Below, one piece after another: positions 1-56,686 of a stretch of 57,451 nt of DNA. Under the pieces are notes generated by a model that worked only from the letters and a program-made list of their open reading frames with translations, ran no database searches and had not been told where the DNA came from. This stretch comes from a virus. Position 1 is the stretch's first letter; each line of letters starts with the position of its first letter. The translations under genes and the position numbers were made by a program. The DNA lies in IMG/VR virus record IMGVR_UViG_3300046059_000043, positions 1 through 57,451 of that record, one strand, 5' to 3'.

Positions 1-55
1 GGGGGACCCTCTCAGGTCCCATTCTACGCCCGCAGCGTCAGTACCACCGAAAATG
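1..55. repeat. 55-bp terminal direct repeat, identical to 57397..57451. Read as the assembly overlap of a circular or terminally redundant molecule.
   Basis: The first 55 nt, GGGGGACCCTCTCAGGTCCCATTCTACGCCCGCAGCGTCAGTACCACCGAAAATG, recur exactly as the last 55 nt of the window. Confidence 0.95.
3..20 (-). terminator. Hairpin GGGACC-N6-GGTCCC downstream of leftward ORF 38..493
   Basis: 6-bp perfect inverted repeat at 3-8 and 15-20. It lies just past the stop of the minus-strand ORF. No T-run follows, so terminator function is uncertain. Confidence 0.3.
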
Positions 56-493
56 GTCCGGTTCGAGCGGTTCAAGTTCGTCCTCCGAGTCGGTCGGCTC
101 GGTTGTAAGCGCCCGGACGGCGCTGAACGCATTTTCCATCCCGGTAAAGCGGAGCGTGAACGCCGCGTGCGGGTCCTCTTCTGGATGAGGCCGCTCAACG
201 GACCCGTCCGGCGCGCACCGGATCACTTGGTATCGGCGCGGTTCCTCTGTTCGGTGTCCGGGCGGCCCGGTCGGGGGTGCCTTACTGGACACGACGGCGT
301 AAGCATGGCCGTCGGGTCCCACCGTCGGCGTGCCGTGCAAAAGCGAGCTATGAAACCGCATCGTGTCGTCGTCGAAAAAATGGCCGCCCTGTTCTTCGTG
401 GCGGCGGATCACGTCGCCCCACGGAACGGGGGGCGAAAACGGTTCGTGCGGGGATTCCCTGTGTGTGTCGGGGTGCTCTTTGGTCGCATCCAT
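38..493 (-). CDS. hypothetical protein (151 aa, acidic, His/Pro-rich)
   Basis: ORF track. The ATG at 493 sits in the recurrent GAAACCGATG start context. I recognise no motif. Confidence 0.6.
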   Translation of the reverse strand: MDATKEHPDTHRESPHEPFSPPVPWGDVIRRHEEQGGHFFDDDTMRFHSSLLHGTPTVGPDGHAYAVVSSKAPPTGPPGHRTEEPRRYQVIRCAPDGSVERPHPEEDPHAAFTLRFTGMENAFSAVRALTTEPTDSEDELEPLEPDHFRWY

Positions 494-625
494 CGGTTTC
501 GGTCCGTCTGTTCTCAGTGAGCGAATGAACGGGGAACGTCCCGTTCGCGCCGGGCGCCCGCCCCTGGCTGAATGCCAGCGAAACGGACGCCCGAAACGAG
601 CGGGGCGAAGAGTGCACGTTCAACA

Positions 626-1687
626 TCAGCTGAAGAGCCGATAAAGCGTGTAGCTCTTCCCGTGCTCCCCGATCTGGACGCGCTTCGCCACCGCCTCTTG
701 CTCGTCAAAGTAGCGGGGGGCGTCGGCATCGGGCTGTTCCTGGAATCGCTCCGTCAGCCACACCACTTCGCCGCCCGTCTCTTGGGCGAAGCGGAGCGCC
801 TCCTCAGAGGGACACGAGCGCTCCGAATACGAGGCCTCTTTGTCAAAGTCGACGCGGAAGCTGTCGTGGTAGTCCGCCGCCACGCGCTCCAGGACGTAAC
901 GGCGTTGGCAGTCGTAACCCTCTTCAAGGGCATCCTGCAAAACGTCGGAGCCGTGGGTTTCAGCCCACTCGGCCCGTTCGGCCTTTCTGAGCTCACGGCG
1001 CTTCTGTTTCTCCGCCCGGCGCGCTTCCTTGCGGCGCTCCTTTTCTGCCTCGTACGCCTCCTTTCTTTCCTTCGCCTCCTCATTGGCGCTTTTGATCTGG
1101 CCGAAATGATCGGAGTCCTCAAAATCGGAGAGGACCCCGGATTTCAGGACGAGAGGCGGTTCAAGGGTGCCCTCTCCCTCCGTCACGGTTCCGCGGTTCT
1201 CCCTGAGGAGATGCAGCAACCGCGGGGCCGCCTCATCCAAGTTTTCGACGTGCTCGGTGCGCTTCAGCTCGAAAAGGTCTTCGCGCCTGTCGAGGGCCTC
1301 TCCCAGCATGTCCGCAGTCAGAGGCTCGCTGAACTTCATGTACTGCCCCGCCGTCGAGCGCGACGTTGGAACTTGGAGCTCAGGGTAATCGCTGAGGCGC
1401 TCATAAGTGCGCCTCACCGACCCGACCGTTCGGCTGTTGTGGATTTTGTTCTCAGGGACGCGCAGGGAAACCGTTTTTGAGATGTCTCCGCTCGAACGCG
1501 TGCTCCCTACATCCGCAAGGTCGTAAAGCCTCTTCCGCACGGATGCGGGCACGTCCTCCGCGCTCACGTCCAGCGTCTGCGTCCGGTCGGGGCGCTTCCC
1601 AGTCTCGGCGAACCGCTCTTTGCGGTATTCGTCGGTGAGCGCGTATTTGATCGAAAAGGTGACAGGGGTGCTCTCTACGGTGTTCAT
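626..1687 (-). CDS. hypothetical protein with a central Lys/Glu/Arg-rich helix
   Basis: ORF track gives 626..1747. I prefer the internal ATG at 1687 (MNTVEST...). Charged helix: EEAKERKEAYEAEKERRKEARRAEKQKRRELRKAERAEW. Confidence 0.6.
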   Translation of the reverse strand: MNTVESTPVTFSIKYALTDEYRKERFAETGKRPDRTQTLDVSAEDVPASVRKRLYDLADVGSTRSSGDISKTVSLRVPENKIHNSRTVGSVRRTYERLSDYPELQVPTSRSTAGQYMKFSEPLTADMLGEALDRREDLFELKRTEHVENLDEAAPRLLHLLRENRGTVTEGEGTLEPPLVLKSGVLSDFEDSDHFGQIKSANEEAKERKEAYEAEKERRKEARRAEKQKRRELRKAERAEWAETHGSDVLQDALEEGYDCQRRYVLERVAADYHDSFRVDFDKEASYSERSCPSEEALRFAQETGGEVVWLTERFQEQPDADAPRYFDEQEAVAKRVQIGEHGKSYTLYRLFS

Positions 1688-1840
1688 AACTGAGGTTGCC
1701 GCACATGCGGCGATTTGGTTCGAATGGAATGAGCAGCACAGGCACATGCCTGTGCGGCGGGCGAGACGCCCGGCAGAGGGAACCGAAGGCTGTTCGGCTC
1801 CTCTCTGCCCGGCCTCTCGGGCCGGGGCTGTTCCCCGCAG

Positions 1841-2317
1841 CTAGATCCGCGCGGGCTTCTCCGCAAACGCGCGGACGCCGGACGGAAGCTGCTTCCACGC
1901 CTCGTGCACGACACGCGGCACGCCGCTTACGTTATCGTCGCCTTGCTGATACGGCCTCAGCGCATCCGCTTCGTAGTAGCGGCGCGGCGTGATGCGATTC
2001 GTCAGGCAGTAGGCAATGCACTGAAGCGCCGTCCGATCCTCGGTTTGGCGATGGGAGATGCGCCAATCAAGATCGCAAATGTTGGGCGTCTCGTGCGAAA
2101 AGCACACCGTCGCCCCCGGCGGCGCGTAGCGCTTCCGGTTCACCGCCTGGTATTCGCCACGCTGGTACTCCCCAGAGGACCACACCGGCGCGCCGTGATG
2201 CTCGGATTTCGGGTTGTGGTATGTGGTCAGCCGCGGAATCTGAATCCAACGACCGCGCTTCCGGATGACATAGATCGTGCGCTTTGAAGAGTCGGTTCGG
2301 GTGGATTGTCGTCTCAT
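1841..2317 (-). CDS. hypothetical protein (158 aa)
   Basis: ORF track gives 1841..2386. The ATG at 2317 (MRRQST...) is in a CGAACCGATG context and is preceded by three promoter-like boxes. Confidence 0.6.
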   Translation of the reverse strand: MRRQSTRTDSSKRTIYVIRKRGRWIQIPRLTTYHNPKSEHHGAPVWSSGEYQRGEYQAVNRKRYAPPGATVCFSHETPNICDLDWRISHRQTEDRTALQCIAYCLTNRITPRRYYEADALRPYQQGDDNVSGVPRVVHEAWKQLPSGVRAFAEKPARI

Positions 2318-2338
2318 CGGTTCGGTGATGTCTGATGC

Positions 2339-2413
2339 GAAAAAAAGTCGGTAGGGTGTCGGCAGAAAAAATGCCGGTAGGGGCACCGCCTGCGAAAAAA
2401 CGCAGGTAGGGGG
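2339..2413 (-). promoter_or_regulatory. Three tandem copies of the A-run/CGGTAGGG box (minus strand: CCCTACCG-N-T6-7-C)
   Basis: Plus strand: GAAAAAAAGTCGGTAGGG (2339-2356), GAAAAAATGCCGGTAGGGG (2365-2383) and GAAAAAACGCAGGTAGGGGG (2394-2413). They begin 22 nt upstream of the ATG at 2317. Confidence 0.45.
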
Positions 2414-2484
2414 TGCCTACTGGCGAACCGGGGCGGGGTATCGGGTCAACCGCCGAACGCCGACGGTGCGTCGATCGGATCCCT

Positions 2485-2498
2485 GAACCTGTCGGTTC
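2485..2498. promoter_or_regulatory. GAACC-N4-GGTTC palindrome (GAACCTGTCGGTTC)
   Basis: Perfect 5+5 inverted repeat in the intergenic region between ORFs 2586..3428 and 1841..2317. One of five perfect copies in the genome. Confidence 0.4.
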
Positions 2499-2585
2499 AT
2501 CGCCCGAACGGTCCGCGCCGGACGCCCCACAGCTAACGCTTCAGTGCCAGCGATTCAGCACTGCGGGGCGCCCGAAACGGGCCGT

Positions 2586-3428
2586 TCAGCGGGCGTTCGC
2601 CCGGTGAAACAGATCCGCCAGTTCAACGGCACTGGCAATCGTCGCCGTGTCGACGTAGGCAGAATCGGGCGTCTCAAAAATGAAGTGCTCCCCGATCCGC
2701 TCCATGCACTCCCGGAAGAGGGCGCGCCGCTCCTTCTCCGGGACCGAATCAAGAATGTGAAACAGCGTCTCTTCAGCGTCCATCGGATGCGTCGCGCCCG
2801 GCACGTTCGCCCGGCGCGCCCGGCGGAGAAACTGTGTCGCCCGCTCGCCCGACACTGCACGGGTCTCTAACTCCGACCAAAAATCGTCAACGGCCCACGA
2901 CCGGATCGCATCCCGGCGGAGCTCCGACCGCAGTTCTTGCCAGTCGGTTTCGTCAAGAAGCCCGGTCGAGTACCCCGTTTCCGCGCACAGCATACGAAGG
3001 TCCCGGATCACACCCGGATCGGTCACATCCCCGCGCACGAGGACACCGTGAGAGTTGTATCCGCCATGTGTCCCGTGCACGCCCTCCACATCAGAGTGCC
3101 GCTCTAAAAAGACGCGCTGGTTCGACCGCTCCACCGTGCCGTGGTGGTAGGAGCCCCACGAGGCCCGATCCGGCGAAAAAAAGAGGTACCCGGGTTCGGT
3201 CTCCCGTGTCGGCACGTGAGAGAACCAGTAGTCGGTGATGCTGTCTGGATCCTTCAGATCGCCCATCGACACAGACTCACCCGAATTGGGACGGCGGTCT
3301 ATATCATAGCTGGATAGATCACTGTCCGTGCGCCGCCGGATGCGGACCGCACGCCACCGCCCGCGGGGCGGGTCAAGGTCCCGCACGGACTGTTCTTCGG
3401 TTTGCGATTCGGTTGTTGATCGGTTCAT
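2586..3428 (-). CDS. hypothetical protein (280 aa)
   Basis: ORF track. ATG in a GAAACCGATG context. Acidic composition. Confidence 0.65.
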   Translation of the reverse strand: MNRSTTESQTEEQSVRDLDPPRGRWRAVRIRRRTDSDLSSYDIDRRPNSGESVSMGDLKDPDSITDYWFSHVPTRETEPGYLFFSPDRASWGSYHHGTVERSNQRVFLERHSDVEGVHGTHGGYNSHGVLVRGDVTDPGVIRDLRMLCAETGYSTGLLDETDWQELRSELRRDAIRSWAVDDFWSELETRAVSGERATQFLRRARRANVPGATHPMDAEETLFHILDSVPEKERRALFRECMERIGEHFIFETPDSAYVDTATIASAVELADLFHRANAR

Positions 3429-3564
3429 CGGTTTCGGTTGACTTCGTTCATCGGTTCAGTGAGTCGGACGCCGAAAGCGGCGCCCGCACCGGGCGGTCGG
3501 CTATGCCAGCAACGGTAAACACTCCGTCAGCACAGCGGACCGCCCGAGACGGGCGTCGGATGGC

Positions 3565-4344
3565 CTACACGCGCATCAGGTTCGCCACGCGGTCTGGTTC
3601 CTCCCACCGGGTGCCGAACTTCGCGTTGTGGGCACGAAGGAGCTCCACACCCATCACCGTGTATGGAAACGGCACTCCCATCGCCCCATGCGCGTACGAA
3701 TACACGAAGTGAGACGCCACGTGTGTATCACTGAGGGCGAGTTCCCGCACGGATTCGACAAAGCCCGCGGGGACCGCCGCATCATACGCCCGGTGCCCGC
3801 CCGACCGCGGTTCGATCTGTAGGCGCTCCGCTAGATACGCGTCAATGCTGAAACCGCCGTCGGGCGTGTCGTACGCCGTCGGTCCATTATCGCCGAACGG
3901 CGTGCGCCGTACCGACCGGATCCCCGCCGACACGCTCCGTTCATAACAGTCCCACAGGTTCTCCCCCGAGGCGCGCCCCTGGATCACACCCGGCACGTGA
4001 CCGCTGTACTGACGTGCGTTCATCTCTGCCTCGTGGGCTGCCCCCTCTATCGTCTCCGCGCCCGGATCCTCGCCCGGACGGGCGCGAAGCGCCGCGGTCC
4101 GCCCGTTGTGGAATCCAACTTCTACCACGTGCGTAGCGGCGCCGCGCCCATTGTCGAAACCCTCCGTCCCACCGGTCCCGCGGCGCTCTGCAATGTGGAG
4201 CATTGCTTCATCCACGGTGCCCGCGAACATACCCGGACTGCGGTGGATCGTCGCGTTGGTGACCGCATCAATGGCCTCCGCCGTGATCGCTGCTGCACGC
4301 CTGTGCTGCTGAATGTCTTCTTTGATCGCTTCCATTGGTCTCAT
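3565..4344 (-). CDS. hypothetical protein (259 aa)
   Basis: ORF track gives 3565..4530. I prefer the ATG at 4344 (MRPMEAIK...) in a CAAACCGATG context, 14 nt after a T8 run. The longer form would overlap the upstream ORF. Confidence 0.6.
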   Translation of the reverse strand: MRPMEAIKEDIQQHRRAAAITAEAIDAVTNATIHRSPGMFAGTVDEAMLHIAERRGTGGTEGFDNGRGAATHVVEVGFHNGRTAALRARPGEDPGAETIEGAAHEAEMNARQYSGHVPGVIQGRASGENLWDCYERSVSAGIRSVRRTPFGDNGPTAYDTPDGGFSIDAYLAERLQIEPRSGGHRAYDAAVPAGFVESVRELALSDTHVASHFVYSYAHGAMGVPFPYTVMGVELLRAHNAKFGTRWEEPDRVANLMRV

Positions 4345-4376
4345 CGGTTTGGTTGTCGAAAAAAAACGAGAGTACC

Positions 4377-4394
4377 CGAACGGCGAACCGTTCG
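4377..4394 (-). other. Hairpin CGAACGG-CGAA-CCGTTCG (UUCG loop on the minus-strand transcript)
   Basis: 7-bp perfect stem with a 4-nt loop, between palindrome 4408-4421 and the T8 run at 4359-4366. Confidence 0.4.
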
Positions 4395-4407
4395 CGCCGT
4401 CCGCCCC

Positions 4408-4421
4408 GAACCTTTCGGTTC
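4408..4421. promoter_or_regulatory. GAACC-N4-GGTTC palindrome (GAACCTTTCGGTTC)
   Basis: Perfect copy, identical to the one at 49187-49200. Intergenic, upstream of ORF 3565..4344. Confidence 0.4.
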
Positions 4422-4484
4422 TATTCGGTTGGGGGCGGACGAAACGAACAGCCCGTCGCCTATGACCGGGCACCCTCCACGGCG

Positions 4485-5099
4485 TCAAGCACAACGAGCG
4501 CCGTGTCGCGCCCGCCGACCGCTCGGGCAAGGGGCGTGCCGTCCGCCCGGTCGTACACGTCGTACATCTGCCCGGTCAATCACGAGACGACCGTCGTCCC
4601 GGCGCTCCGTGTCTGGGGGCAAGTCGCTTAGGGCCTCATCACAACGCGCCCGGGCAGTGCTCACAGCCGACCGAATCTCATCCGGGTCAAAGTAACCGGT
4701 TCGCGTTTCGAGGGGCTGAAAATCAATCTCTGGAACCTCGACGCGGGCGTGAAATCGTGATTTCCCTTGCGCCTGCCCCAGATCAAAGCAGAGACGGTAG
4801 CCGTCAAGGTGGCGGTTCTGGTATACACACTTTACCCATGCCCATAGGTACAGCGTCCGGTCTGCCGGAACCGGATCCCCGCGGAGGCGCTCCGCTTCCG
4901 CTTCCTCTTCATCAGTGAGCGGCACGGCCCACGGCCTGCCCCGCTCAAAGAAGTCGTCCGCTACGGGGATGCGGAGGCCCTTCGCATCCTTGCGGGCGCG
5001 GTCGTCCGAAAGGGCCTCCCCAATGCTGTAGAGGATACCGCGGGTGCTAGCGCGGCCCACGCGGTCGGAAGTGCGGTCGTCGGTGCTAGAATGACTCAT
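4485..5099 (-). CDS. hypothetical protein (204 aa)
   Basis: ORF track. ATG in a TGAACCGATG context. An A6 run lies 23 nt upstream, at 5123-5128 on the plus strand. Confidence 0.6.
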   Translation of the reverse strand: MSHSSTDDRTSDRVGRASTRGILYSIGEALSDDRARKDAKGLRIPVADDFFERGRPWAVPLTDEEEAEAERLRGDPVPADRTLYLWAWVKCVYQNRHLDGYRLCFDLGQAQGKSRFHARVEVPEIDFQPLETRTGYFDPDEIRSAVSTARARCDEALSDLPPDTERRDDGRLVIDRADVRRVRPGGRHAPCPSGRRARHGARCA

Positions 5100-5139
5100 C
5101 GGTTCAGTGTTGGTTTGGTGAGAAAAAACAGGAAGCGTG

Positions 5140-29878: not shown

Positions 29879-30988
29879 ATGATTGACGAGATCGCCCACA
29901 TCATCCCGACGCACGAGCGGCCCGCCGTCGCTCAGCGCCTGGTCGATTCGATCAACCACTTTTATCCGGATTCGCAGGTCTACGTCTGCGACGACAGCCG
30001 CGCGCCAGAAACCTACGACGGGGCGACCGATGTCCCCGCGACGGCCTACGACATCGGCCTCAGCGCAAAGCGCAACCTGCTGGTGCAGGCGTCGACCGAA
30101 CCCTACGTGATGCTCTGGGACGATGACTACGTCTGTACCTCCAACACGGACCTTCGCGTCTTCTATGAGCTTCTCCAGGAGGTAGAGGGCTGTGGGATGG
30201 TCGGGGCCGAGTGGTCGCTCAGCCAAACGCAGGACCGAAATGTCTGGTTTACCGGCCAGCTCATTCCGAACGGCGCAGAAGTTAAGGTCCGCCCGCCCGA
30301 GGGAGACCCTGAGCGCATCGAGACCGGCGTGGGCACCCTCGCCTATCACGAAGTCGACCTGCTCCCGAACTGGTTCATGGCGCGGCGCGAGCTTCTGGAG
30401 ACCGTCCCGTGGGACGAGAAGCTGAAGCTGAACGAGCACCTCGAATTCTTTGCCCGCCTCACCGCGATTCGGGCAGACAGCCCACGCGGGAAGCGGTGGC
30501 GCGAGCGGTGGGAAACGCTCCAGGAGGGTGAGGACCTCTTCAAGGCCAGCCAGAATGGGAAAGCGGTCGTGCAGGCCCAAGCATCCTTCTCAAATAAGAA
30601 CCATCTGGAGCACATCGGCGGCCATGTAGCGACCGGCGACTGGATCGAGGTAGATTCCGACTACGCGGAGGAGCTAATCGACTCGGGGCTCGCCCTCCCG
30701 ATGAGCGCAGTAAGGGACACGCGCCCATTCCCATTGCTAAAGGGAACAGTGGACATGGATATGAAGTGTGTCTTAACGCCAAATACGACATCCCAGCACA
30801 TGCGAAGCGAGGGCCGCGCCTCTGAGGCGTACACGGAGAAGAGGTACCGCCGCGATCAGTTCATGCCGCTTCAGAAGGCAAAGCTCGGCATTCGGACGCG
30901 GGACCTGGTCCAGTGGTCGAGGTATCCGTACCCGTCGCCCGACTTTGACGACCCAGACCCCTCTCTACTCGAACTGCCTTCTGTCTAA
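29879..30988 (+). CDS. Family-2 (GT-A fold) glycosyltransferase with a C-terminal extension (369 aa)
   Basis: IIPTHERPAVAQRLVDSINHFYPDSQVYVCDDS follows the GT2 N-terminal pattern, and LWDDDY is a DxD motif. Confidence 0.7.
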   Translation: MIDEIAHIIPTHERPAVAQRLVDSINHFYPDSQVYVCDDSRAPETYDGATDVPATAYDIGLSAKRNLLVQASTEPYVMLWDDDYVCTSNTDLRVFYELLQEVEGCGMVGAEWSLSQTQDRNVWFTGQLIPNGAEVKVRPPEGDPERIETGVGTLAYHEVDLLPNWFMARRELLETVPWDEKLKLNEHLEFFARLTAIRADSPRGKRWRERWETLQEGEDLFKASQNGKAVVQAQASFSNKNHLEHIGGHVATGDWIEVDSDYAEELIDSGLALPMSAVRDTRPFPLLKGTVDMDMKCVLTPNTTSQHMRSEGRASEAYTEKRYRRDQFMPLQKAKLGIRTRDLVQWSRYPYPSPDFDDPDPSLLELPSV

Positions 30989-38143: not shown

Positions 38144-41100
38144 ATGAGCAACGAGTTTTTCTCTACGTCTCTCCGGACGCGGGCGGGGACACTCGTCTTA
38201 CGAATGATCGATGACCGCCCCAACCCGACCACGATCAACTTCGGCTATTCCGTCGAGAGCGGGATTGACCTGCGCTGGGGCGAAGGTCGGTCAACGGGGT
38301 ATGGGGAACCCGTGGTGGGATCGTTTGCCGACATTACGGTCAAGGACCCGGAGAATCGGTTCCAGCAGTTCTTCGGGACCGAGTTCGATGAGCTAAGCTT
38401 CAAGGCCCTGATTGAGGGGAGCGTTGAGGGGCACCAGTTCCAGTGGAAGGGGCGCGTGCAGCAATCCCAGTTTGACCGCCCCGTAAGCCCGAGGGTCCAG
38501 AGCGAGCGAAAGACGATCCGCCTCTACGATCGGCTCGGGGCGCTGAAGGACAAAAACCCCATCCCCCGCCCGGAGATCCTGGATGTTGAGGAGTTTCTGA
38601 TGCGGACCCTGTTTCCGGCCCAGCCAAACGTTGACATCCTCTACGACATCGATGTGGAGGGGGCCTCATATTTTGACGGGTCCCCCGTCCCGCCGCAGGA
38701 GTGGTACCCCACCACCCGGCGCCCAGCCACCCGAGACGTGGGGGACACAGACGACGTGGACGATGAAGGCATCGGAGGGGGCTCCCTCCGCGAGCAGTTG
38801 GAGACGTTTGCGGGGCGCCTCGGCCTCAAGGTGTGGCAGGAGCCGTTTACGGGCACGTTCCACGTGGTGCCCCGCTTTCGGGTCGGAGAAGAGATCACGG
38901 ATGCCACCCGCATCACGTCGAACGGCTATCCCCTCGACGATAGCGCAACGCCCAGTTTCGACCGCTCGGCGACCATCCCTCAGCTTCTGGTTCAGGACCC
39001 GCCGCTGCGGGCGGAAAATCAGGACCGTTACCAGTCGGTCGAGGGGGTCAAGAAGGTGACCGTTGAGATCGAAAACTCGCCTCTCCTGAAGAACCCGCAC
39101 TTCAAGCTTTACGAATTTGTAAACAGCCGCACGGGGAGCCTGGAGGACTTCACGGCGGACTTTCTGTTCTGGGAGCAGGCCGAGAACCCGTACTTTGCGC
39201 AGAAGATGCAGGTGCTGTGGCCGTACAACAACCGCGTCTGGCGGAGCGAAGAGGAGGCAAACGACTACGTGGGCCTCAATGTCGTTGAGGACGACAATCA
39301 GCTCTCCCTGCTGCGGCAGCAAACGCGGCCCGTCTCGCGGCAGGACTTTCCCGTCACCGCGCGGCTTCTGTACCGAGCCGTGCCCATTGATCCAAACGCT
39401 CAAAAGAACGACGGATACGTCTTCAACCTCATCCTTGAGCACGTCCGAGACGACGGCACAACCAGTAGGGTCGAGACGGAAGAAATCACACCCACCTTTT
39501 TTGGGGCAGGTCTTGAGCCAGCCACCATCCCTGACGAGAAGTTTATTGAGACGCCCGCCTCACGTGAGGCGGGCCAATACAGGGTCACCGTTTCGGGAAA
39601 TAATATCTGGTTCAAGGTCGTCGGATTTGAGCTTACCGTTCAGAACCCGTCAGGGGATAACCTTCTCCTTTCGTCAATTGACATCACCCCCACCGACAAC
39701 GAGAAAGGGCGGAAAGAAGTCCAGATTAGCGATGATACCTTCTACTTCAACGGGGAGCTAAATCGGCTGAAGAATCCCCTCGGGCGAACCCAGTTTATCG
39801 AGAACTGGGAGAAAGAAACGCAACCGACGGTGCAGCCGATTGACTGGTCCAGCCCCCGCCTTGGCCGCAACTACGACAACCTGTATAAGTATCGGGCCGT
39901 CGCTCGGCTCGCCCAGCAGCCCCCCGGCACCGATGCGCTACAGACCCTGGTGGTGCCTGGCATCTTGACGCCAGGGCGAGCCATCGACATCCAGGATGAG
40001 GGGCGCCTCATTTTTGCCGGTGGGCGGACCGTGCACCTGACCGGTGAGGAGACGGGCACGACGGAACTCAACGACATTGTCGTCCCTGAGGTCCTTTCTG
40101 ATCCGATCGACCCTGGGGCTCGCCCAGAGGCGCCGGACATCCTTCTGACCTCGTTCGCCACGTACGACCTGACCGCGCAGGACGCGAGCCGAATCGAGGG
40201 GTACAAGCTGTCTCGCCGGAACGCGCCCGACGCGCCGGAAACGGAAGTTGAGCAGGCGGCGAGTCAGAATAGCCCTGAGAGCGTCGCGGATCCGAACCCG
40301 GCACCCGGCATGAACCTACATGTCGCGCGGACCTACAACTCGAACGGCGACAGCCCGCCCTCCCGCGAGGCTTTGCAGCTTCCCTCCGGCTGGTATAAAG
40401 ATGGGGATCCCGAGTTTTCGCCGAATCCCATTCCGAGCCCATCGGCAGGCGCGTCTAATGCCGCCCTGATCGACGGGGAGATGTACATTTTTGGCGGCAT
40501 AGACGGCTCTGGGCAGCACGCGCGCTGCTATAAATACGACGTGTGGGCCGACACGTGGACCCAGCTCCCGAATTATCCGGAGGGGCCGACCGAAGGACTT
40601 TTCGCTGCCGCGAGTCCCCCGAACGGCGGGATTATCGTCGGCGGCGGTATTGGCCCGGGCGGCGCTCGGCCTGGGACGCACTTCTGGAACCGATCCGTTC
40701 CGGAGTGGCAGCCGCTCGATAATTTGCCAGAACCGATCGGATACGGCGCCGTGGCCCGAGGGCGCGGCAGCGGAAACTACGAAATTCTGATCGCCCACGG
40801 CGGAGAGGATGGCGCAGGAGCCGCCACAAGCGCCGTGCAGCGGCTGAACTTAAATTCAGGGGCATGGGCTACCCTAAGCGACGCGCCCTTCTCAGAGCGT
40901 CGTCACGGCGCGGTCTACAGGCAGAGCGATGACCTGTGGTATGTGTTCGGCGGGGCGGAGGACCGCTCGCGCCTGTGGCAGTTCAACGCAAGGCAGGACG
41001 CGTGGTCATCGGTTGGGAGCGCCCCGCCCACGCCCGTATCGGAGTACGGAATCGCGTACTCAAACGCACAAGACTCTGCGTTCCTGATTGGCGGGACGCC

Positions 41101-41476
41101 CAGCGGGGGCGGCCAGGCCGAGCAGCCGCAGGAGTATTCGTTCTCCGCAGGCGCGTGGACGGAGCACGCCGGAATGCCGACTCCCAGAAGCGAGGCGCGG
41201 GGCGTCTTCATCGACGGCTTTGATGTTCTGTTCGCGGTCGGCGGGGACGGTGGCTCGCCGACGGGCATCAATGAGGTGTATGTCCTCGGGCTCAACCTCA
41301 AAAAGTCGGGCAGCGAGCCGACGTGGACGAGCTGTCAGGACTACACCGTGGATGAGCCGCTCACCGAAGAAAACGCGCCCACGTGGACGAGCTGCCAGAA
41401 CTACACCGTGACCGCCGAAACCGCAAACACGGCACCGCAGTGGACGAGCTGTCAGGATTATACGACCTCTGAATGA
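38144..41476 (+). CDS. Large tail/baseplate protein with a C-terminal Kelch-type beta-propeller and three terminal PTWTSCQDYT modules (1110 aa)
   Basis: Repeated Kelch-like blades (MYIFGGIDGSG...YKYDVWADTWTQLP; LWYVFGGAEDRSRLWQFNARQDAWSSV; FLIGGTP...YSFSAGAWTEHAGMP). It directly follows the tape measure gene. Confidence 0.75.
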   Translation: MSNEFFSTSLRTRAGTLVLRMIDDRPNPTTINFGYSVESGIDLRWGEGRSTGYGEPVVGSFADITVKDPENRFQQFFGTEFDELSFKALIEGSVEGHQFQWKGRVQQSQFDRPVSPRVQSERKTIRLYDRLGALKDKNPIPRPEILDVEEFLMRTLFPAQPNVDILYDIDVEGASYFDGSPVPPQEWYPTTRRPATRDVGDTDDVDDEGIGGGSLREQLETFAGRLGLKVWQEPFTGTFHVVPRFRVGEEITDATRITSNGYPLDDSATPSFDRSATIPQLLVQDPPLRAENQDRYQSVEGVKKVTVEIENSPLLKNPHFKLYEFVNSRTGSLEDFTADFLFWEQAENPYFAQKMQVLWPYNNRVWRSEEEANDYVGLNVVEDDNQLSLLRQQTRPVSRQDFPVTARLLYRAVPIDPNAQKNDGYVFNLILEHVRDDGTTSRVETEEITPTFFGAGLEPATIPDEKFIETPASREAGQYRVTVSGNNIWFKVVGFELTVQNPSGDNLLLSSIDITPTDNEKGRKEVQISDDTFYFNGELNRLKNPLGRTQFIENWEKETQPTVQPIDWSSPRLGRNYDNLYKYRAVARLAQQPPGTDALQTLVVPGILTPGRAIDIQDEGRLIFAGGRTVHLTGEETGTTELNDIVVPEVLSDPIDPGARPEAPDILLTSFATYDLTAQDASRIEGYKLSRRNAPDAPETEVEQAASQNSPESVADPNPAPGMNLHVARTYNSNGDSPPSREALQLPSGWYKDGDPEFSPNPIPSPSAGASNAALIDGEMYIFGGIDGSGQHARCYKYDVWADTWTQLPNYPEGPTEGLFAAASPPNGGIIVGGGIGPGGARPGTHFWNRSVPEWQPLDNLPEPIGYGAVARGRGSGNYEILIAHGGEDGAGAATSAVQRLNLNSGAWATLSDAPFSERRHGAVYRQSDDLWYVFGGAEDRSRLWQFNARQDAWSSVGSAPPTPVSEYGIAYSNAQDSAFLIGGTPSGGGQAEQPQEYSFSAGAWTEHAGMPTPRSEARGVFIDGFDVLFAVGGDGGSPTGINEVYVLGLNLKKSGSEPTWTSCQDYTVDEPLTEENAPTWTSCQNYTVTAETANTAPQWTSCQDYTTSE
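41318..41467 (+). repeat. Three in-frame copies of the P(T/Q)WTSCQ(D/N)YT module (periods of 60 and 57 nt)
   Basis: PTWTSCQDYTV at 41318-41350, PTWTSCQNYTV at 41378-41410, PQWTSCQDYTT at 41435-41467. Confidence 0.9.
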
Positions 41477-43149: not shown

Positions 43150-45087
43150 ATGTCAAAGCTGGTCACGAAGAGACTTTTTGCGCGGGTTGTGGTGTGGCAG
43201 CCCGCGACGGGGGCCGTCATCGACCTCCCGTCCCGATCGGTAACGGCAGGTGGGGGCTTCTCTCGGGACGAGAATCGAGCGGTGATGTCCGACGGCTCCG
43301 CCGAGCCGACCAGCCGCAGTCATAGTCTGAGGATCCCGATGTCGCACGAGGAGGCGCGTGTGGCAAGTCGGTTGTTCCGGCTCAATAGCTGTCCCGCGCG
43401 GGCACTGCTCATTGGCGTGGAGGGAACCGAGCACGTCCTCTGGCACGAGGAGACGCGCGTCAACATCGAAAGTTCAGAGACTGACCCAGGCCAGTCCGCG
43501 AAGGACCTCGTGCTGGAGTCCTCGATCTTCAACCCGGCGATCTTTCGCGGCATGAACCTGATTGAGGGGGTTCCTTGGCAGGCAACGGAGGCCAAAGACA
43601 CTGGCTCCGGCTTTGAGATGCGGTATCCGGGCGGCGGGTACCGGCCCGGCTACGAGGGACCCGCGTTCGGCGTAGGATCTGAAGACGTGGAGGTCGACAT
43701 GCTCGGCGTCCCGAGCGGCCTTACAGAGGCGACCGTTCAATTTGAGTTTCCGGCGTGGGGATCCGTCCTCAAGCTCGGCGCCGTCACCGGATACACGCTC
43801 GATAATGGAATCCTGAAGGCCCTGGACTGGAATGAGTCGGTGCTCGCGTTCGTCGGTGCGGGGCAGGAGCTTGAGGTTCCGGATCGCACGTGGTACGTAG
43901 AGATTGGGCTGGGCGACGCTGGGGGGCGGCCCCGCCTCGATGTGGTTCGGCCTGGCGTGGGGCAGGGCAAGTTTCTGACCGGAAACCGCGAGAAGGCGTG
44001 CGAGCGCTCCGCCGAGGAGCCGCCGTGGGACGAGATCCCTGAGCCGAACGAGCCGCCGCGGTGGGTGCGGAAAGAGCCGCTCGTGTACGGACTCGACAAC
44101 ATCCCGCCCACGTGGACGAGCTGTGAGGATTACACGACCTCTGAGGAGGGCACGGGTGGAGACAATTCACCGCCCACGTGGACGAGCTGCCAGGATTATA
44201 CTACGACGGAGGAGCAGGCTGAGCCGCCGGAGGAGACGTTCACGTACACGGCCCCGAACGTAGGGCCAACGAGTTACATCTTTACCGCCAGCGGCGGATT
44301 CTCGCGCTTTGATTACTTCCCGGCTCAGTCAAATTACGAGAACTATTTGGATCAGGACGCCGCCTACGACCTGGCCGTTGACGAGTCTGCGGGCTACGTA
44401 TTCCTTGCCATCCAGGAGGCCATTCGGCGCTTCGACTTGAGCGGCGGCTCCGGGACCAATGTGCTGCAAGAGTCCGGCAACGATCCAGTCGGGATTGCCG
44501 TCGACCCGCTCACCCAAGAGGTCTACTTCAGCTACCAGCAGCAAACGGGCATTTACAAGATTGCCTACGACGGGAGCGGGAAGACGCAGGTTGCCAGCGA
44601 CGCGGGGGAGGCGTATGCCCTCGGCGTGGCCCCGGACGGGGGCGACGGCGCGTACATCTTCGGCGTGAGTCCGACGGCGCAAGAGATTGCCCGCTGGAAC
44701 GCGGACGGGTCCGGGAAGAAGGTGCTGAAGGACCTTTCCGGAACGGTCTATTACCTCCAGCGCAACTGCCACCTGCACCTGGAGGGGGCGTGGGTCTTTT
44801 ACCAGCAGTCCAAGTCTGACTCACAGAGAAACGTGCGCCGCATCTCGATGGGCGGGGGCACCGATGAAGGAATTTTTCTTGAGGCGTCTACGTACACGAT
44901 CGCTGACCACCAGTATTGGACCGTGCTTCAAGAGGAGGATAAGTGGATTCAGCTCGAATCCGCAGAGGACGGAGCAACGCGAGTAGAAGAGCGAAACTTG
45001 GATGGGAGCGGTACTACATCCACGACCCTCTCAGGCACCTCCTATGACCTCGGAGAACGGATTGCTTCTGCACAGCTTGTCAGCTAA
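43150..45087 (+). CDS. Tail protein with two central PPTWTSC(E/Q)DYTT modules and a C-terminal YWTD/NHL-like beta-propeller (645 aa)
   Basis: Modules at 44104-44139 and 44170-44205. Propeller-like blades: GIAVDPLTQEVYFSYQQQTGIYKIAYDGSGKTQV; YALGVAPDGGDGAYIFGVSPTAQEIARWNADGSGKKVL. Confidence 0.65.
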   Translation: MSKLVTKRLFARVVVWQPATGAVIDLPSRSVTAGGGFSRDENRAVMSDGSAEPTSRSHSLRIPMSHEEARVASRLFRLNSCPARALLIGVEGTEHVLWHEETRVNIESSETDPGQSAKDLVLESSIFNPAIFRGMNLIEGVPWQATEAKDTGSGFEMRYPGGGYRPGYEGPAFGVGSEDVEVDMLGVPSGLTEATVQFEFPAWGSVLKLGAVTGYTLDNGILKALDWNESVLAFVGAGQELEVPDRTWYVEIGLGDAGGRPRLDVVRPGVGQGKFLTGNREKACERSAEEPPWDEIPEPNEPPRWVRKEPLVYGLDNIPPTWTSCEDYTTSEEGTGGDNSPPTWTSCQDYTTTEEQAEPPEETFTYTAPNVGPTSYIFTASGGFSRFDYFPAQSNYENYLDQDAAYDLAVDESAGYVFLAIQEAIRRFDLSGGSGTNVLQESGNDPVGIAVDPLTQEVYFSYQQQTGIYKIAYDGSGKTQVASDAGEAYALGVAPDGGDGAYIFGVSPTAQEIARWNADGSGKKVLKDLSGTVYYLQRNCHLHLEGAWVFYQQSKSDSQRNVRRISMGGGTDEGIFLEASTYTIADHQYWTVLQEEDKWIQLESAEDGATRVEERNLDGSGTTSTTLSGTSYDLGERIASAQLVS

Positions 45088-45462: not shown

Positions 45463-46587
45463 ATGCCAGAGCTCACAGACCCCGACAACGACGGCATTTT
45501 AGAGTTTACCCAGACCGTCGAAGACGTGGACGGGGATTCTCTGTCCATCACGGGGGAGCTGGACCAGATCAACGGCACCACTCAAAGTGGTAGTGACCGT
45601 AACCCGAGCTGGTTTTCGTTCACAACATCGAGTTCCCTCTCCGGCGGCACTCGAACGGTGGATGTGAATATCCAGATCAACGCCTCTGAACTCGGGGGTG
45701 CGGGCACGACGTATACGTTCGAGCTTTATGCCGATGATGGGGTCAGCACGTCGACTTGCACGTTCACCCTTGAGGTCACGTCTTCATCCCCCAACACACT
45801 CTTAATCAGCTATAATGATAATGAATTTCAAACTTATGACATAAAAAATGGTACGTTTAATACGGTAATTCCGAGCGCACCGGGTGCAAACGATTATATT
45901 GTAGCGTTTGCAAAAGACTCTGCAAATGAAAGGGTTTGGTTTGCCTTAAAAGTAGACGGGGTAGACAAGGTAGAATATTACACGGCCCCATTCAGCGACC
46001 TTTCAAACTGGACAAAACAGTTTGAAGATACAACGTCATCATTAGATATAAGGGAACTTCATTACGATAATGAAAAGGACAGACTACCAGCAAGCGATAA
46101 CCAAACAGATGAGACTATTTATTATGATACTAACGGGAACCGTAACGTGGTGCGTGGTTTCACGGTTTTTCCTTTGGCATTTGATGAGAAAAGAGGAGTT
46201 TTTGGAAGTGAGGACGACATCTATGAAATTAGACACTATGATTATGGAAACAACGTGAAAGATGCTGATACGTCGGCGATTTCTACCGGCGCTGCTTTTT
46301 ACCACCCAGTGCTCGATGAATTTGTTTACTATGAAGGAAATAACAACACAATATCTAGATACGACCCTAACGATTCATATAATAAAACTGATGTAAACAA
46401 TTCATTCCAGCTTGGAAATGCTGGAATCCATGCGCCAAATGAAGGCCCAGACGCAGCCGCATGGACTGCAGACGAAAGCTCCAACGGTGAGCTTGTGGTC
46501 ATTGATTTAAGTGACGGCTCTACGATAAGAGATACAGGCGATGTTCCAACTGCCGCCCCAGATGATTATCTCTTAATCAACAAGTAG
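45463..46587 (+). CDS. Tail/receptor-binding candidate: Ig-like N-terminal domain fused to a low-GC C-terminal domain (374 aa)
   Basis: N-terminus DGILEFTQTVEDVDGD...YTFELYADDGVSTSTCTFTLEV. From about 45795 the DNA becomes AT-rich and the protein Asn/Tyr/Asp/Lys-rich. Confidence 0.6.
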   Translation: MPELTDPDNDGILEFTQTVEDVDGDSLSITGELDQINGTTQSGSDRNPSWFSFTTSSSLSGGTRTVDVNIQINASELGGAGTTYTFELYADDGVSTSTCTFTLEVTSSSPNTLLISYNDNEFQTYDIKNGTFNTVIPSAPGANDYIVAFAKDSANERVWFALKVDGVDKVEYYTAPFSDLSNWTKQFEDTTSSLDIRELHYDNEKDRLPASDNQTDETIYYDTNGNRNVVRGFTVFPLAFDEKRGVFGSEDDIYEIRHYDYGNNVKDADTSAISTGAAFYHPVLDEFVYYEGNNNTISRYDPNDSYNKTDVNNSFQLGNAGIHAPNEGPDAAAWTADESSNGELVVIDLSDGSTIRDTGDVPTAAPDDYLLINK

Positions 46588-52507: not shown

Positions 52508-52720
52508 TTACCTGTTCTGCCGCTCGTCCACCAGGTCGCCGAGCTTGACGAGATACTTGGCTGCCCCGAAGGCGTTCGTGAGCGTTGAGGGGTGGACCCC
52601 CAGCTCCTCGGCAGCTCGTTTCAGCGAGCCGTGCCCGCCAAATTCGACATACACGTCCGACTTGACCTCGCGGATTAGGTGGTATGCTTCCTCGGCTTTC
52701 TCTTTGGTAGACTTGCTCAT
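52508..52720 (-). CDS. Small HTH DNA-binding protein (70 aa)
   Basis: GSLKRAAEELGVHPSTLTNAFGAAK is HTH-like. Confidence 0.6.
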   Translation of the reverse strand: MSKSTKEKAEEAYHLIREVKSDVYVEFGGHGSLKRAAEELGVHPSTLTNAFGAAKYLVKLGDLVDERQNR

Positions 52721-52804
52721 AGGGCGGGGACGGTCGCGTTACTCGGCAGGTAATTCAATGGGGTTTATGACGTGAAACCCCACGGGTTCCTTCGGGGGCG
52801 GCAG

Positions 52805-52821
52805 AAAAAAGTCGGTGGGGG
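52805..52821. promoter_or_regulatory. A-run/G-box (AAAAAAGTCGGTGGGGG) in a divergent 141-nt spacer
   Basis: It lies 84 nt upstream of the minus-strand ATG at 52720 and 40 nt upstream of the plus-strand ATG at 52862. Confidence 0.4.
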
Positions 52822-52861
52822 TCCTTCTCAGCTTTTCTCAAACCGCTTTTCCGCCGCTCCA

Positions 52862-53152
52862 ATGGCTGTAAACGGCTTTGCAGACGCGACCATCCTTCTC
52901 GACTACTCGACCGAGGACCCGGAACCAGTGGACGTAAAAGACCCCTACGCCGCCGACCAGCGGTGGGTGTACGCGACGGGGATTAGCGCCGACACCTTTA
53001 ACATTGAGTACCGGCCCAACACGGACCGAGCCTGGGTCACCGTCGTGGCCGATGTATCCAACGGCGTCCAGACCATGCAGCGGAGGCCGGAGGGGCAGTA
53101 TCGGGTCACGCGGAGCGGCAACACCGACCAGGCCACCATCGCCTTCATTTAG
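52862..53152 (+). CDS. hypothetical beta-rich acidic protein (96 aa), on the opposite strand to its neighbours
   Basis: ATG at 52862 inside ORF-track entry 52772..53152. Third codon positions are strongly G/C in this frame. The overlapping minus ORF 52838..53260 is Gly/Val/Pro/Arg-rich, as expected of an antisense shadow. Confidence 0.6.
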   Translation: MAVNGFADATILLDYSTEDPEPVDVKDPYAADQRWVYATGISADTFNIEYRPNTDRAWVTVVADVSNGVQTMQRRPEGQYRVTRSGNTDQATIAFI

Positions 53153-53174
53153 CCAATAGGGATCCTTCACGCCG

Positions 53175-53297
53175 ATGCGCCAGACGGTCATAGAGTCGGT
53201 GAACGTGAGAGTCGTTGCGGAAGCGGTCCGGAGCGTGGGAGTGCAGAACACCCCGCCCACGTGGTCCTCGTGCCAAGACTACACGTATGCAAAGTGA
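53175..53297 (+). CDS. Unannotated 40-aa ORF ending in the tail-protein module (MRQTVIESVNVRVVAEAVRSVGVQNTPPTWSSCQDYTYAK)
   Basis: Hand translation. It is below the ORF-track cutoff. PPTWSSCQDYT (53253-53285) matches the module repeated in ORFs 38144..41476 and 43150..45087. Confidence 0.5.
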   Translation: MRQTVIESVNVRVVAEAVRSVGVQNTPPTWSSCQDYTYAK

Positions 53298-53330
53298 CGG
53301 AGGGGGGCTGTAGCCGGTAAGCGTCAGCAG

Positions 53331-53422
53331 AAAAAACGCGGGTGGGGGTTGTCGGTCGCCAAAAAAAGTCCGGTGGGCACCCGCCCACCCGCTTGCGGCA
53401 CGCGAAAAAATGTCGGTGGGGG
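53331..53422 (-). promoter_or_regulatory. Three tandem A-run/CGGTGGGG boxes with no leftward gene downstream
   Basis: AAAAAACGCGGGTGGGGG (53331-53348), AAAAAAAGTCCGGTGGGC (53361-53378) and AAAAAATGTCGGTGGGGG (53405-53422). The middle copy overlaps a GGTGGGC-ACCC-GCCCACC hairpin. Confidence 0.4.
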
Positions 53423-53508
53423 CTGATTAATCGCGCGCGCAAAAAGAAAAGAACACGGCCCGCGGGTCGGCGGGCTAAGCGGCGTCGGTCAGGCGCCCAC
53501 ACGCAGAA

Positions 53509-53569
53509 AGGGCCGCCCCGAACGAACCTACAGGTTCGAAAGCGACAGGTAGGCTCCTAGGGCGGCCCT
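53509..53569 (-). terminator. 10-bp inverted repeat AGGGCCGCCC/GGGCGGCCCT enclosing a GAACCTACAGGTTC palindrome
   Basis: Arms at 53509-53518 and 53560-53569, with the inner palindrome at 53524-53537. It lies 40 nt past the stop of minus ORF 53610..54392. On the minus strand it is followed by TTTCT. Confidence 0.4.
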
Positions 53570-53609
53570 TCTATGCGGATGGGAGAAGAAAGCGGAGCTC
53601 ACGAGCGCA

Positions 53610-55546: not shown

Positions 55547-56686
55547 CTAGTCGGTGTGCGTATTGATCTGGTGCACATCGACCGGGGATTCGAACACTTC
55601 GTGCCACGTATCCCCAAGGTCGATCATGTGGTGATCCCGGCGCGTGTGTCCGACGCGGCACCGGATAAAGAGGCGCGTTCCGCGGCTTTTGCCTGTTGGC
55701 GATTCGGTCTGGACGGCGGCGCGCTTGTGCTTGTGGGATCCGAGCGCCCAATGAATTTTCTCCGCGCCGGGAAGCTTGATCGGATCCACCGAAGGGCGGG
55801 GAACGAAGAAGTACTCGCCTTGACGGACGATCACCGATCCTTGCAGGTCGGCCCGACAGAACTGGTAGTTGACCGTTCGGTCTGATCGGTACCAGTATTT
55901 TTTCACCGATGTCTTGCCCCCGGCTTCGCGGTGGGCTTCGGCTTCCTCGTCGGTAAGATCGTGTTTGCGGTACTCATCCGACGTGATTACCGGAAGGCCG
56001 CTCGGGAACGCCTCCGTGCCGCGCATTGCCGTAGACACGTCGTCCGGCCTTAGATACTCGACAATGGCCGCCCGCACGCCTTCCGCCTCCGCGTACTCAA
56101 CCACGAAGGGCAGAAGGTCGACCGTAAACCGCCCGCCGTTGCGGGCGGTGCGGTCGTGGCCTACGCCGACCGCCCCTTCGTGCCCGTCAATCAGAACGAT
56201 ATGCCAGCGCCCGTACGCGCCGGTGCGGGGATCGGCCTCACTTTTGACATTGGTGATGTCGTACGCGTCGGTGCTGCCTGTGCGGCGGATTCGCCGTCGG
56301 CCCGTGCACCTGCGGCTATCGCTCATGTGCGCCTCTATTGCAGAGAGGGGCAGTCGGTAGTCCGCTCCGGGGGCGGGCGAGCAGTGAGCAAAGCCGGTGC
56401 TCCAGCACTGCGCGTTGTTGATGATGAGCCCGGACACGGTCCGAATCGCCTCCCGGGTGCGGTAGTGCCAGAGCGTCCCCGCGCCGTCGGGGTGCTGCTG
56501 TCCCTTGAAGTTAGGGGAGGAGTAGAGCCGCCCCTCGTTGTGGGTTGGGTATTTTCCTTCCGCCCAGGCGCGGGCCACGTCGTCTTGTCGGTCGTAGCAA
56601 GCACGCGACGTTGGTTCGTACCGTGGATGCGGGACACACGTGTCCGTCTTGGATGTGTCTGTTTTGGGTACGGTTCGGGTACTCAT
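55547..56686 (-). CDS. hypothetical protein (379 aa)
   Basis: ORF track. Its start codon and 22-nt leader are identical to those of the integrase gene. Confidence 0.65.
   Translation of the reverse strand: MSTRTVPKTDTSKTDTCVPHPRYEPTSRACYDRQDDVARAWAEGKYPTHNEGRLYSSPNFKGQQHPDGAGTLWHYRTREAIRTVSGLIINNAQCWSTGFAHCSPAPGADYRLPLSAIEAHMSDSRRCTGRRRIRRTGSTDAYDITNVKSEADPRTGAYGRWHIVLIDGHEGAVGVGHDRTARNGGRFTVDLLPFVVEYAEAEGVRAAIVEYLRPDDVSTAMRGTEAFPSGLPVITSDEYRKHDLTDEEAEAHREAGGKTSVKKYWYRSDRTVNYQFCRADLQGSVIVRQGEYFFVPRPSVDPIKLPGAEKIHWALGSHKHKRAAVQTESPTGKSRGTRLFIRCRVGHTRRDHHMIDLGDTWHEVFESPVDVHQINTHTD

Follow-up and report, generated by a model that had tools for sequence, protein, structure and literature searches.

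A peptide of two phage tail-tip proteins recurs in a conserved, separately encoded 40-residue gene within a swappable slot

We describe a peptide of ~17 residues that lies inside one tail-tip protein of a phage (gp645), is triplicated on a second tail protein (gp1110), and forms a stand-alone gene (ORF40) in a recombination slot. The existence of a tail peptide as a free and conserved 40-aa gene, as judged by sequence comparison, is the unusual aspect of this arrangement; the mosaic swap slot and the short peptide common to tail proteins are both of known kinds. ORF40 and the tail tags most likely have a partner in common, which would be either a docking site in the tail-tip assembly or an enzyme, for example the glycosyltransferase GT2, that modifies the tag. 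Under the reading that we favor, with a probability of roughly 45%, the tag would be read by one partner in tail-tip assembly, and ORF40 would act as a tag-only accessory component.

RESULTS AND DISCUSSION

Genome organization and host

The window, i.e., the whole stretch of DNA analyzed (57,451 bp), corresponds to a complete circular phage genome of ~57 kb with a GC content of 62% (0.617). Its first 55 bases are identical to its last 55, and the metagenome contig L009 spans the junction of the two ends, which together indicate a circular assembly. Gene calls delineate a rightward arm from ~5.7 to 48.2 kb and a leftward arm, which extends from 57.4 to 48.3 kb and carries on from 5.1 kb to position 1. 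The rightward arm encodes a C5 methylase, a tyrosine recombinase, two PAPS-reductase-like proteins, the capsid protein, the GT2 glycosyltransferase, a holin, a 1185-aa tape-measure-like protein, and tail proteins. Two of the latter are central here, the 1110-aa Kelch-propeller tail protein gp1110 (38144..41476) and the 645-aa tail-tip protein gp645 (43150..45087). Between 48341 and 57299, independent gene calls place all genes on the minus strand except the one at 52862..53152, confirming the island opposite to its surroundings that the initial annotation of this DNA had proposed. The features discussed below are listed in Table 1.

The sole similarity to a named phage lies in the N-terminal region of gp1110, which is 24% identical to its counterpart in Salinibacter ruber M8 phages. 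Based on this similarity, the host is likely of the hypersaline Bacteroidota type, and the phage appears to come from a halophile-type community, with distant ties to the S. ruber phages. Megablast against GenBank phages gave no match, and a search of IMG/VR returned no relatives of gp645, gp1110, or the 260-aa neighbor of the island.

Table 1. Coordinates of the features discussed in the text (positions in the 57,451-bp window)
Feature	Position	Strand	Remark
ORF40 tag region G22..T37 (GVQNTPPTWSSCQDYT)	53238..53285	+	paralogous to gp645 residues 314-330
Tag copy a in gp645 (PPTWTSCEDYT)	44107..44136	+	six-frame scan
Tag copy b in gp645 (PPTWTSCQDYT)	44173..44202	+	six-frame scan
gp1110 62-aa C-terminal extension	41288..41473	+	tag copies 41318-41347, 41378-41407, 41435-41464
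ORF40 allele A	53175..53297	+	40-aa protein gene
orf96	52862..53152	+	conserved 96-aa acidic protein, first gene of the rightward unit
Variable cassette slot	53154..53326	+	orf96 stop codon to triple box cluster
Leftward box CCCACCGACTTTTTTC	52804..52819	-	upstream of the HTH gene
Triple leftward box cluster	53330..53420	-	53330-53346, 53360-53377, 53404-53420
Terminator-like hairpins	53458..53570	-	after the 248-aa gene: 53458-53475, long one 53505-53570
70-aa HTH gene	52508..52720	-	divergent; beside orf96 in all relatives
Imperfect palindrome GGGGTTTATGACGTGAAACCCC	52760..52781	.	HTH-orf96 intergenic region; partly conserved

A tag shared by ORF40 and two tail-tip proteins

ORF40 (MRQTVIESVNVRVVAEAVRSVGVQNTPPTWSSCQDYTYAK) begins with 21 conserved N-terminal residues, after which it reproduces the strand-plus-tag segment of gp645, and it ends in NTPPTWSSCQDYTYAK. 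The initial annotation had pointed out that it carries a module of two tail proteins, and this proved correct. Indeed, the module P-[TQ]-W-[TS]-S-C-[QE]-[DN]-Y-T occurs in exactly six copies in the six-frame translation of the window, three in gp1110, two in gp645, and one in ORF40. In gp1110 the copies are located at the C terminus, and in gp645 they are found mid-protein, linking two domains. The tag as a whole follows the consensus G-phi-x-N-x-P-P-[TS]-[WF]-x-S-C-x-D-Y-T, which in ORF40 corresponds to the C-terminal 17 residues, a paralogous copy. The hydrophobic-Gly-hydrophobic-x-N context reported ahead of the module is present as described, as VGVQN and AGLSN in ORF40 and as YGLDN in gp645. 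Within the window, ORF40 and the gp645 copies align over 16-19 residues with tblastn E values of 7e-7 and 2e-6, so their likeness is not due to chance.

This likeness is maintained at the peptide level, since between the cores of ORF40 and gp645 copy b, 9 of 33 nt are different, including an AGC-to-TCG serine swap, with a single amino acid change, and none of 20,000 trials in which nine substitutions were placed at random was as conservative. The use of other serine codons and the same substitution pattern led us to reject the tag as a DNA-level repeat or recombination signal. A DGR template/variable pair was also discarded: the similarity extends over only ~50 nt (the criterion being a repeat pair of at least 100 nt), serine codons are swapped, and the changes are not adenine specific. 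No reverse transcriptase was found among the proteins scanned, which covered part of the ORFs. The leader-plus-core shape of ORF40 is the only feature that recalls a RiPP precursor; this candidate was rejected because its neighbors (orf96, the HTH protein, and the 248-aa protein) match no enzyme family.

Both tag copies are retained in all four gp645 homologues (76-96% identity), in which the invariant positions are P-P-[TS], Cys, Asp, Tyr, and Thr/Ser. The tryptophan is more variable, as it is missing from copy a in two of the four homologues and is replaced by Phe in ORF40 allele B (see below). The 1071-aa homologue of gp1110 in contig L012 (55% identical) terminates in ...EVRVL and lacks the entire 62-aa triple-tag extension. 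The extension is thus optional, showing that the tag is a portable add-on. In the AF2 model of gp645, residues 260-405 form a coil (pLDDT ~25) between the N-terminal domain and the beta-propeller; with an overall pLDDT of 40, the model was too poor for a fold search, and we gave this linker coil little weight in favor of docking.

Outside ORF40, the tag was found only in the two tail-tip proteins, and it appears to be lineage specific. No match was obtained when 5.8 billion proteins were searched through a 5-mer index, and a profile search of 1.84 billion representative proteins returned solely ORF40 and a spurious protein with DNRAPTWTM repeats. Degenerate DNA scans of viral, metagenome, and genome collections gave either nothing or out-of-frame chance matches.

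A docking handle or a modification tag

We propose that the tag functions as a handle, short and linear, which is placed in acidic linkers, is marked by nearly invariant Cys, Asp/Asn, and Tyr residues, and would be read by a common partner. The likeliest partner would be a docking site in the tail-tip assembly, for which the adjacent beta-propellers of gp1110 and gp645 are the obvious candidates. As a tag-only mini-protein, ORF40 may occupy, cap, or bridge this site, and it could represent an accessory virion or assembly component in the role of the full-size tail-like protein of relatives. The proposal draws on the retention of the tag in the gp645 homologues, on the optional nature of the gp1110 extension, and on the tail- or virion-like contents of the slot in which ORF40 resides (see below), as well as on the precedent of phage receptor-binding proteins that dock through short, conserved peptides (PMC6872550, PMC13352976). 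We counted against it the location of the island, which is found within the early arm at a great distance from the structural genes.

In podophages of Klebsiella (KP32, K11, and KP34), a short conserved peptide attaches one tail protein to another, and the modules are swappable between phages (PMC6872550, PMC13352976). In these dual receptor-binding protein (RBP) systems, a second RBP of full size carries the peptide at its N terminus, and a T4gp10-like domain acts as the partner of the peptide. The phage studied here is similar in that a short conserved peptide is common to separately encoded tail proteins, counting six copies over gp1110, gp645, and ORF40. Unlike the Klebsiella peptide, its tag is internal or C-terminal, is repeated two to three times, contains an invariant Cys, and is also present as a free 40-aa protein; moreover, docking is in this case putative. 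No T4gp10-like branching domain was detected, the Pfam and PHROG matches of gp1110, gp645, and their neighbors being only Kelch and DUF5050-like propellers.

A more ambitious version, which we regard as rather doubtful, is that the tag would constitute a new portable coupling module of halophile-associated phages, tying tail-tip proteins together, possibly via the invariant Cys/Tyr, with ORF40 completing or capping the network. In this case, ORF40 would be needed only in phages whose gp1110 bears the extension. A handle for docking or coupling would make this phage a naturally occurring, minimal example of plug-and-play tail assembly. It would also help to explain how tail tips are rewired and provide a compact tag for engineering.

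The main rival to docking is that the tag serves as an acceptor of a post-translational modification, ORF40 being a free substrate, a primer, or a decoy that titrates or regulates the modifying enzyme. Candidate reactions are the O-glycosylation of the tag Thr/Ser by GT2 or chemistry on the invariant Cys/Tyr. We consider this explanation unlikely, albeit it has several points in its favor. The GT2 gene (29879..30988; Glycos_transf_2, 3.6e-7, over the Pfam cut-off) is located two genes past the major capsid gene, a proximity that keeps the modification alive and that we counted against docking. In addition, the tag is rich in Thr/Ser, varies in copy number, and lies in acidic linkers predicted, at low confidence, to be coil. 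A 219-aa ORF between the capsid gene and GT2 shows a weak match to a sulfotransferase P-loop; since this match is under the Pfam cut-off and was confirmed by neither PDB nor NCBIfam, we rejected the ORF as a sulfotransferase.

Phage-encoded glycosylation of virions has a precedent in mycobacteriophages, as stated in the passage of PMC11256854 that cites Freeman et al. 2023. In phages such as Che8, a glycosyltransferase is likewise found beside structural genes, and Ser/Thr-containing virion tags could be its acceptors. However, Che8-type glycosylation modifies the capsid and the tail tube, whereas the tag described here is absent from capsid and tail-tube proteins and restricted to two tail-tip proteins and ORF40. 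It is best conserved at Cys, Asp, and Tyr and not at any particular Ser/Thr; the acceptor role is putative, and a decoy would have no evident purpose.

ORF40 occupies a slot with exchangeable contents

Comparison with related contigs indicates that the stretch following orf96 is a recombination-swappable slot, anchored by the 3' end of orf96 on one side and by the triple box cluster on the other. Between the window and contig L003, homology ends at 53153 and restarts at 53327. The L003 slot spans 1.25 kb and holds genes for 271-aa and 136-aa proteins, and L005 begins with a gene of the 271-aa type; the slots of L001 and L002 hold genes for 104-aa and 296-aa proteins. The 296-aa and 271-aa proteins are 34% identical. 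The latter has a weak Laminin_G_3 match as well as matches to phrog_10356, annotated as a virion structural protein (2.6e-7), and to a minor tail protein, that of Gordonia phage Wocket (6e-5). In relatives, the slot thus carries tail-like genes, which indirectly supports the accessory virion component considered in the initial annotation. The fillings found are ORF40 allele A, ORF40 allele B, and a LamG-like gene that exists in two versions, both accompanied by a small gene. No empty slot was encountered among six lineages.

Contig L004 is mosaic, with the backbone of L015 and solely the ORF40 segment swapped for the allele of the window: it is otherwise 13% diverged, yet equals the window from ~53090 to 53410. 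The cassette is therefore traded between lineages by recombination in the conserved flanks. A swap slot for tail-related genes is in this way documented in the early region, outside the structural module. ORF40 and the LamG-like cassettes show no detectable relationship, and the idea that they may play the same role is an argument from position.

The initial annotation had interpreted the two genes of the island as a moron-type insertion, which is not what the comparison revealed: orf96 is present in every relative recovered, only the slot behind it varies, and the GC content does not deviate. Lambdoid morons occur in some relatives but not in others, where the neighboring genes adjoin each other; they possess their own promoter and terminator and have a deviant nucleotide composition. 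The island resembles them, and mosaic swap sites in general, as a small opposite-strand unit whose contents vary among collinear relatives, with recombination in conserved flanks. It differs from morons in that orf96 is core, no genome with an empty site occurs among the six lineages, and the contents look tail related rather than related to host fitness. Moreover, its GC content (0.617) equals that of the genome (0.617). A scan for consensus sigma-70 promoters and intrinsic terminators recognized none belonging to it.

It is also conceivable, though quite unlikely and behind modification in our ranking, that ORF40 and the alternative cassettes are host-directed, moron-like accessory genes, switched on when leftward lytic transcription is off, in a prophage or episome. 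A possible scenario would be that the tag binds a host component also recognized by the tail and that ORF40 masks the receptor or blocks superinfection. Such a role would fit the opposite-strand unit facing leftward promoters, the encoded tyrosine recombinase, which allows a temperate or episomal lifestyle, and a hypervariable slot traded between lineages, as in host-interaction arms races. However, ORF40 displays no signal peptide, lipobox, or membrane segment that would let it reach a surface receptor, and two tag-pattern scans of one genome per species, in 185,579 species, retrieved no prophage copy. Along with the undeviating GC content, PADLOC analysis of the island and cassette proteins, which gave no defense or anti-defense matches, also speaks against this scenario.

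ORF40 and orf96 as protein-coding genes

The conservation of ORF40 can be evaluated through a second, diverged allele. Four contigs, including L009 and L010 (the same phage) and L004, carry an ORF40 identical to that of the window. Allele B (MRQTVIEAVAVRTVAEAIRDAGLSNTPPSFTSCQDYTYAK) was traced through P0012, a member of the orf96 cluster, to the three metagenome contigs on which P0012 is encoded (L015, L016, and L017). It is also 40 aa long, with the ATG and the stop placed as in allele A, and is 72.5% identical. The alleles differ at 37 of 123 nt without any gap, the changes being distributed 10:6:21 over the codon positions, and for this single allele pair the NG86 method yields a pN of 0.18, a pS of 0.71, and a dN/dS of 0.09. 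By comparison, the 22 nt upstream are 36% identical and the 32 nt downstream 44%, with indels, so that the conserved block ends exactly at the borders of ORF40. The remaining five frames over ORF40 either contain stops or give ratios from 0.28 (with a stop) to 3.2. As the initial annotation had supposed, the plus-strand frame thus codes for protein: it is conserved in a diverged relative, while the minus-strand frames are interrupted or unconstrained. These comparisons identify ORF40 as a genuine protein under purifying selection, and they illustrate how one diverged allele can establish that an ORF of 40 codons, shorter than annotation cut-offs usually allow, is a real gene. ORF40 had been described as unannotated; in fact, IMG already lists it as a hypothetical protein, both on the 57,451-bp contig itself and on L009.

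The allele comparison also bears on whether ORF40 might be decaying and untranslated, a tail gene of which cassette exchange has spared only the 3' end, which we hold to be very improbable. ORF40 is indeed very short, and illegitimate or homologous exchange takes place at its slot. The codon score of ORF40 (0.16 per codon), although the highest of the six frames, falls at the 12.5th percentile of 40-codon windows taken from real genes, and the JGI gene caller missed it on L004. However, frameshifts or stops would be expected at the observed divergence, whereas the alleles share start and stop, show no indel, and have exact borders and a low dN/dS.

For orf96, the evidence confirms the acidic 96-aa plus-strand gene that had been predicted. 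Its codon log-likelihood (0.35 per codon) and GC3 (0.83) are both typical for genes of this genome, the minus-strand ORFs antisense to it have negative codon scores, and the encoded protein has a pI of 4.3. Five 96-aa homologues were found, and the protein database contains four homologue clusters, all of exactly 96 aa and with 64-90% identity. Pairwise substitutions fall mostly at third codon positions (e.g., 8:3:34), and the comparison with L015 gives a dN/dS of 0.07. In every contig recovered, orf96 is on the same strand and is flanked by the divergent 70-aa HTH gene and a leftward gene of 248 or 260 aa, and it is a core gene of this phage group. No match was obtained in Pfam, PHROG, NCBIfam, or PADLOC, and the AF2 model (pLDDT 43) was too poor for a fold search.

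Three alternative interpretations of the orf96 region were rejected. A minus-strand 140-aa ORF (52838..53260) has a negative codon score, is unconstrained in its orf96 part, and contains a stop inside its ORF40 part in both alleles. A paralogous relationship between orf96 and a domain of gp1110 was dismissed because just 19 residues align (RRPEGQYRVTRSGNT versus REAGQYRVTVSGNN; hhalign probability, 69%), and this alignment is treated as a generic beta-strand motif. Finally, a fusion of orf96 and ORF40 by programmed frameshifting or readthrough is incompatible with the +1 frame of ORF40 and the TAG at 53157-53159, just past the orf96 stop.

Boxes and the orientation of transcription

The A-run/GGTGGG boxes (AAAAANNNNGGTGGG), which read CC[CT]ACCG-N2-3-T6-8-C on the minus strand, had been described as bracketing the island. 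The copies are present there and are overrepresented, with 13 matches (exact or with one mismatch) versus 0.7 expected, the exact ones including 52805, 53332, 53363, and 53406. However, they do not mark borders, as they are spread over the arm in one orientation. At least 11 leftward-pointing boxes are known, all of them upstream of leftward genes and in the leftward arm (57329, 56708, 55101, 53404, 53360, 53330, 52804, 49164, 2394, 2365, and 2339), and five of them have an ATG 21-37 nt downstream. The single rightward-facing box (5413-5427) is found where the two arms diverge. In L001, L003, L005, and L015, the box sites are kept regardless of the cassette carried. The box upstream of the HTH gene has a 17-nt core that is invariant in five genomes, although overall identity in this intergenic region is 63%. 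The triple cluster is 89% identical to that of L015, compared with 44-62% for the adjoining sequence, and it follows the cassette in L003 and L001. Hence, rather than insertion borders, the boxes are probably leftward promoters or regulator sites.

The boxes, considered apart from the rest of the island, are comparable to phage-specific early promoters or to the stoperators of cluster A mycobacteriophages such as L5, in which a 16-20-nt asymmetric intergenic element has one orientation relative to transcription. They share with these elements their length, asymmetry, intergenic location, and single orientation. They differ in that they precede several start codons by 21-37 nt, contain a T6-8 run, form tandem triplets, and, except for the rightward copy, are restricted to the leftward arm.

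The triple cluster points into the island in the antisense direction, its middle box also forms a terminator-like hairpin, and on the minus strand the cluster is preceded by the terminator-like hairpins that follow the 248-aa gene. Together, the cluster orientation and these preceding hairpins suggest that the rightward unit is probably expressed in opposition to leftward transcription. With regard to the docking proposal, this would mean that the unit is expressed against facing leftward promoters, in anticorrelation with early leftward transcription. A consensus scan for sigma-70 promoters and intrinsic terminators recognized none on the plus strand around the island, a result that we counted against docking; Bacteroidota-type promoters fall outside the consensus used.

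That the region would matter as RNA, serving leftward transcripts from the triple cluster as a long leader or as an antisense target, is the least probable explanation of all: three tandem leftward boxes aim into the island and no minus-strand gene separates them from the HTH gene, but purifying selection acts at the protein level on both plus-strand ORFs, the minus-strand frames are interrupted or unconstrained, and the island has no Rfam match except for an miRNA hit under the threshold. Regulation by antisense might occur alongside the coding function, without replacing it.

No motif common to the upstream region of orf96 and to other genes exceeded chance. The divergent 70-aa HTH protein gives weak HTH_8, HTH_30, and HTH_1 matches, all under the Pfam curated cut-offs, and the imperfect palindrome in the region between its gene and orf96 is a candidate operator.

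Genome ends and oriented boxes

The first and last 55 bp of the window are identical (1-55 versus 57397-57451) and their junction is spanned by contig L009, which derives from the same phage. This shows the window to be a circular assembly that is complete, and its leftward arm runs on from position 57451 into 5100..1. Oriented boxes recur along this arm (see the table), twice in the window as tandem triplets, with 26-31 nt from T-run to T-run and 43 nt in one case. Promoters of Bacteroidota have a -33/-7 spacing, which the spacing of the box T-runs resembles. A single box faces rightward, at the point where the two arms diverge.

The arms also share a 27-nt exact inverted repeat, CTCATAAGGCGCAACAGACGCTATGAG, found at 9337-9363 (+) and 56682-56708 (-). 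Since each copy covers a start codon, that of the recombinase gene and that of a leftward 343/379-aa gene, these two genes of opposite arms have an identical leader and start. The recombinase, together with two PAPS-reductase-like proteins and a C5 methylase, is a hint that the phage is temperate or episomal and that DNA is modified.

Features located in the window and in a related contig (L001)
Feature	Position	Description
Boxes CC[CT]ACCG-N2-3-T6-8-C	2339-2410, 53330-53420, 5413-5427 plus eight other sites	oriented; upstream of leftward genes
C5 cytosine methylase	5768-6739	
Tyrosine recombinase	9359-9943	catalytic domain only, 194 aa
PAPS-reductase-like proteins (two)	12425-13249, 13818-14720	
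219-aa ORF	29031-29690	sulfotransferase P-loop match, sub-threshold
GT2 glycosyltransferase	29879-30988	
Imperfect palindrome GGGGTTTATGACGTGAAACCCC	52760-52781	in the HTH gene leader, within the gap separating this gene from the divergently oriented orf96
11-residue repeats, 296-aa protein	L001 7870-7990	RIGVPDATQRG, RVGVRDASQSG, RVSITDVRTEP

Virion genes, tail module and island

The 219-aa ORF and the GT2 gene lie directly 3' of the major capsid gene and possibly encode virion-modifying enzymes. Within the tail module, GC content dips to 0.49-0.53 at 45000-47000, versus 0.62. In this patch, the 374-aa ORF (45463..46587) shows a weak codon fit and has no family match, and therefore probably represents a host-range gene of recent acquisition.

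The tail-tip protein gp1110 ends in a 62-aa extension (41288-41473) carrying three copies of the tag, the short peptide shared with gp645 and ORF40; this extension is missing from the 55%-identical gp1110 homologue in the relative L012 (4500-4530). The extension starts with CTCAAAAAGTCGGGCAG, which has 10 nt in common with the box core AAAAAGTCGG; this match may be due to chance or be a vestige of the extension's acquisition.

Upstream of orf96, the 96-aa island gene, the palindrome is partially conserved in relatives and represents a candidate operator. Relatives carry two LamG-like cassette proteins, both ending in QD[WY]YSL; the 296-aa one begins with three repeats recalling the phi-G-phi-x-[DN] context found ahead of the tag in ORF40 and gp645. 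A second short similarity links the island with the tail: orf96 residues 74-88 (RRPEGQYRVTRSGNT; 53081-53125) resemble SREAGQYRVTVSGNN of gp1110 (39554-39598; hhalign probability 69%, 19 columns), likely as a generic beta-strand motif.
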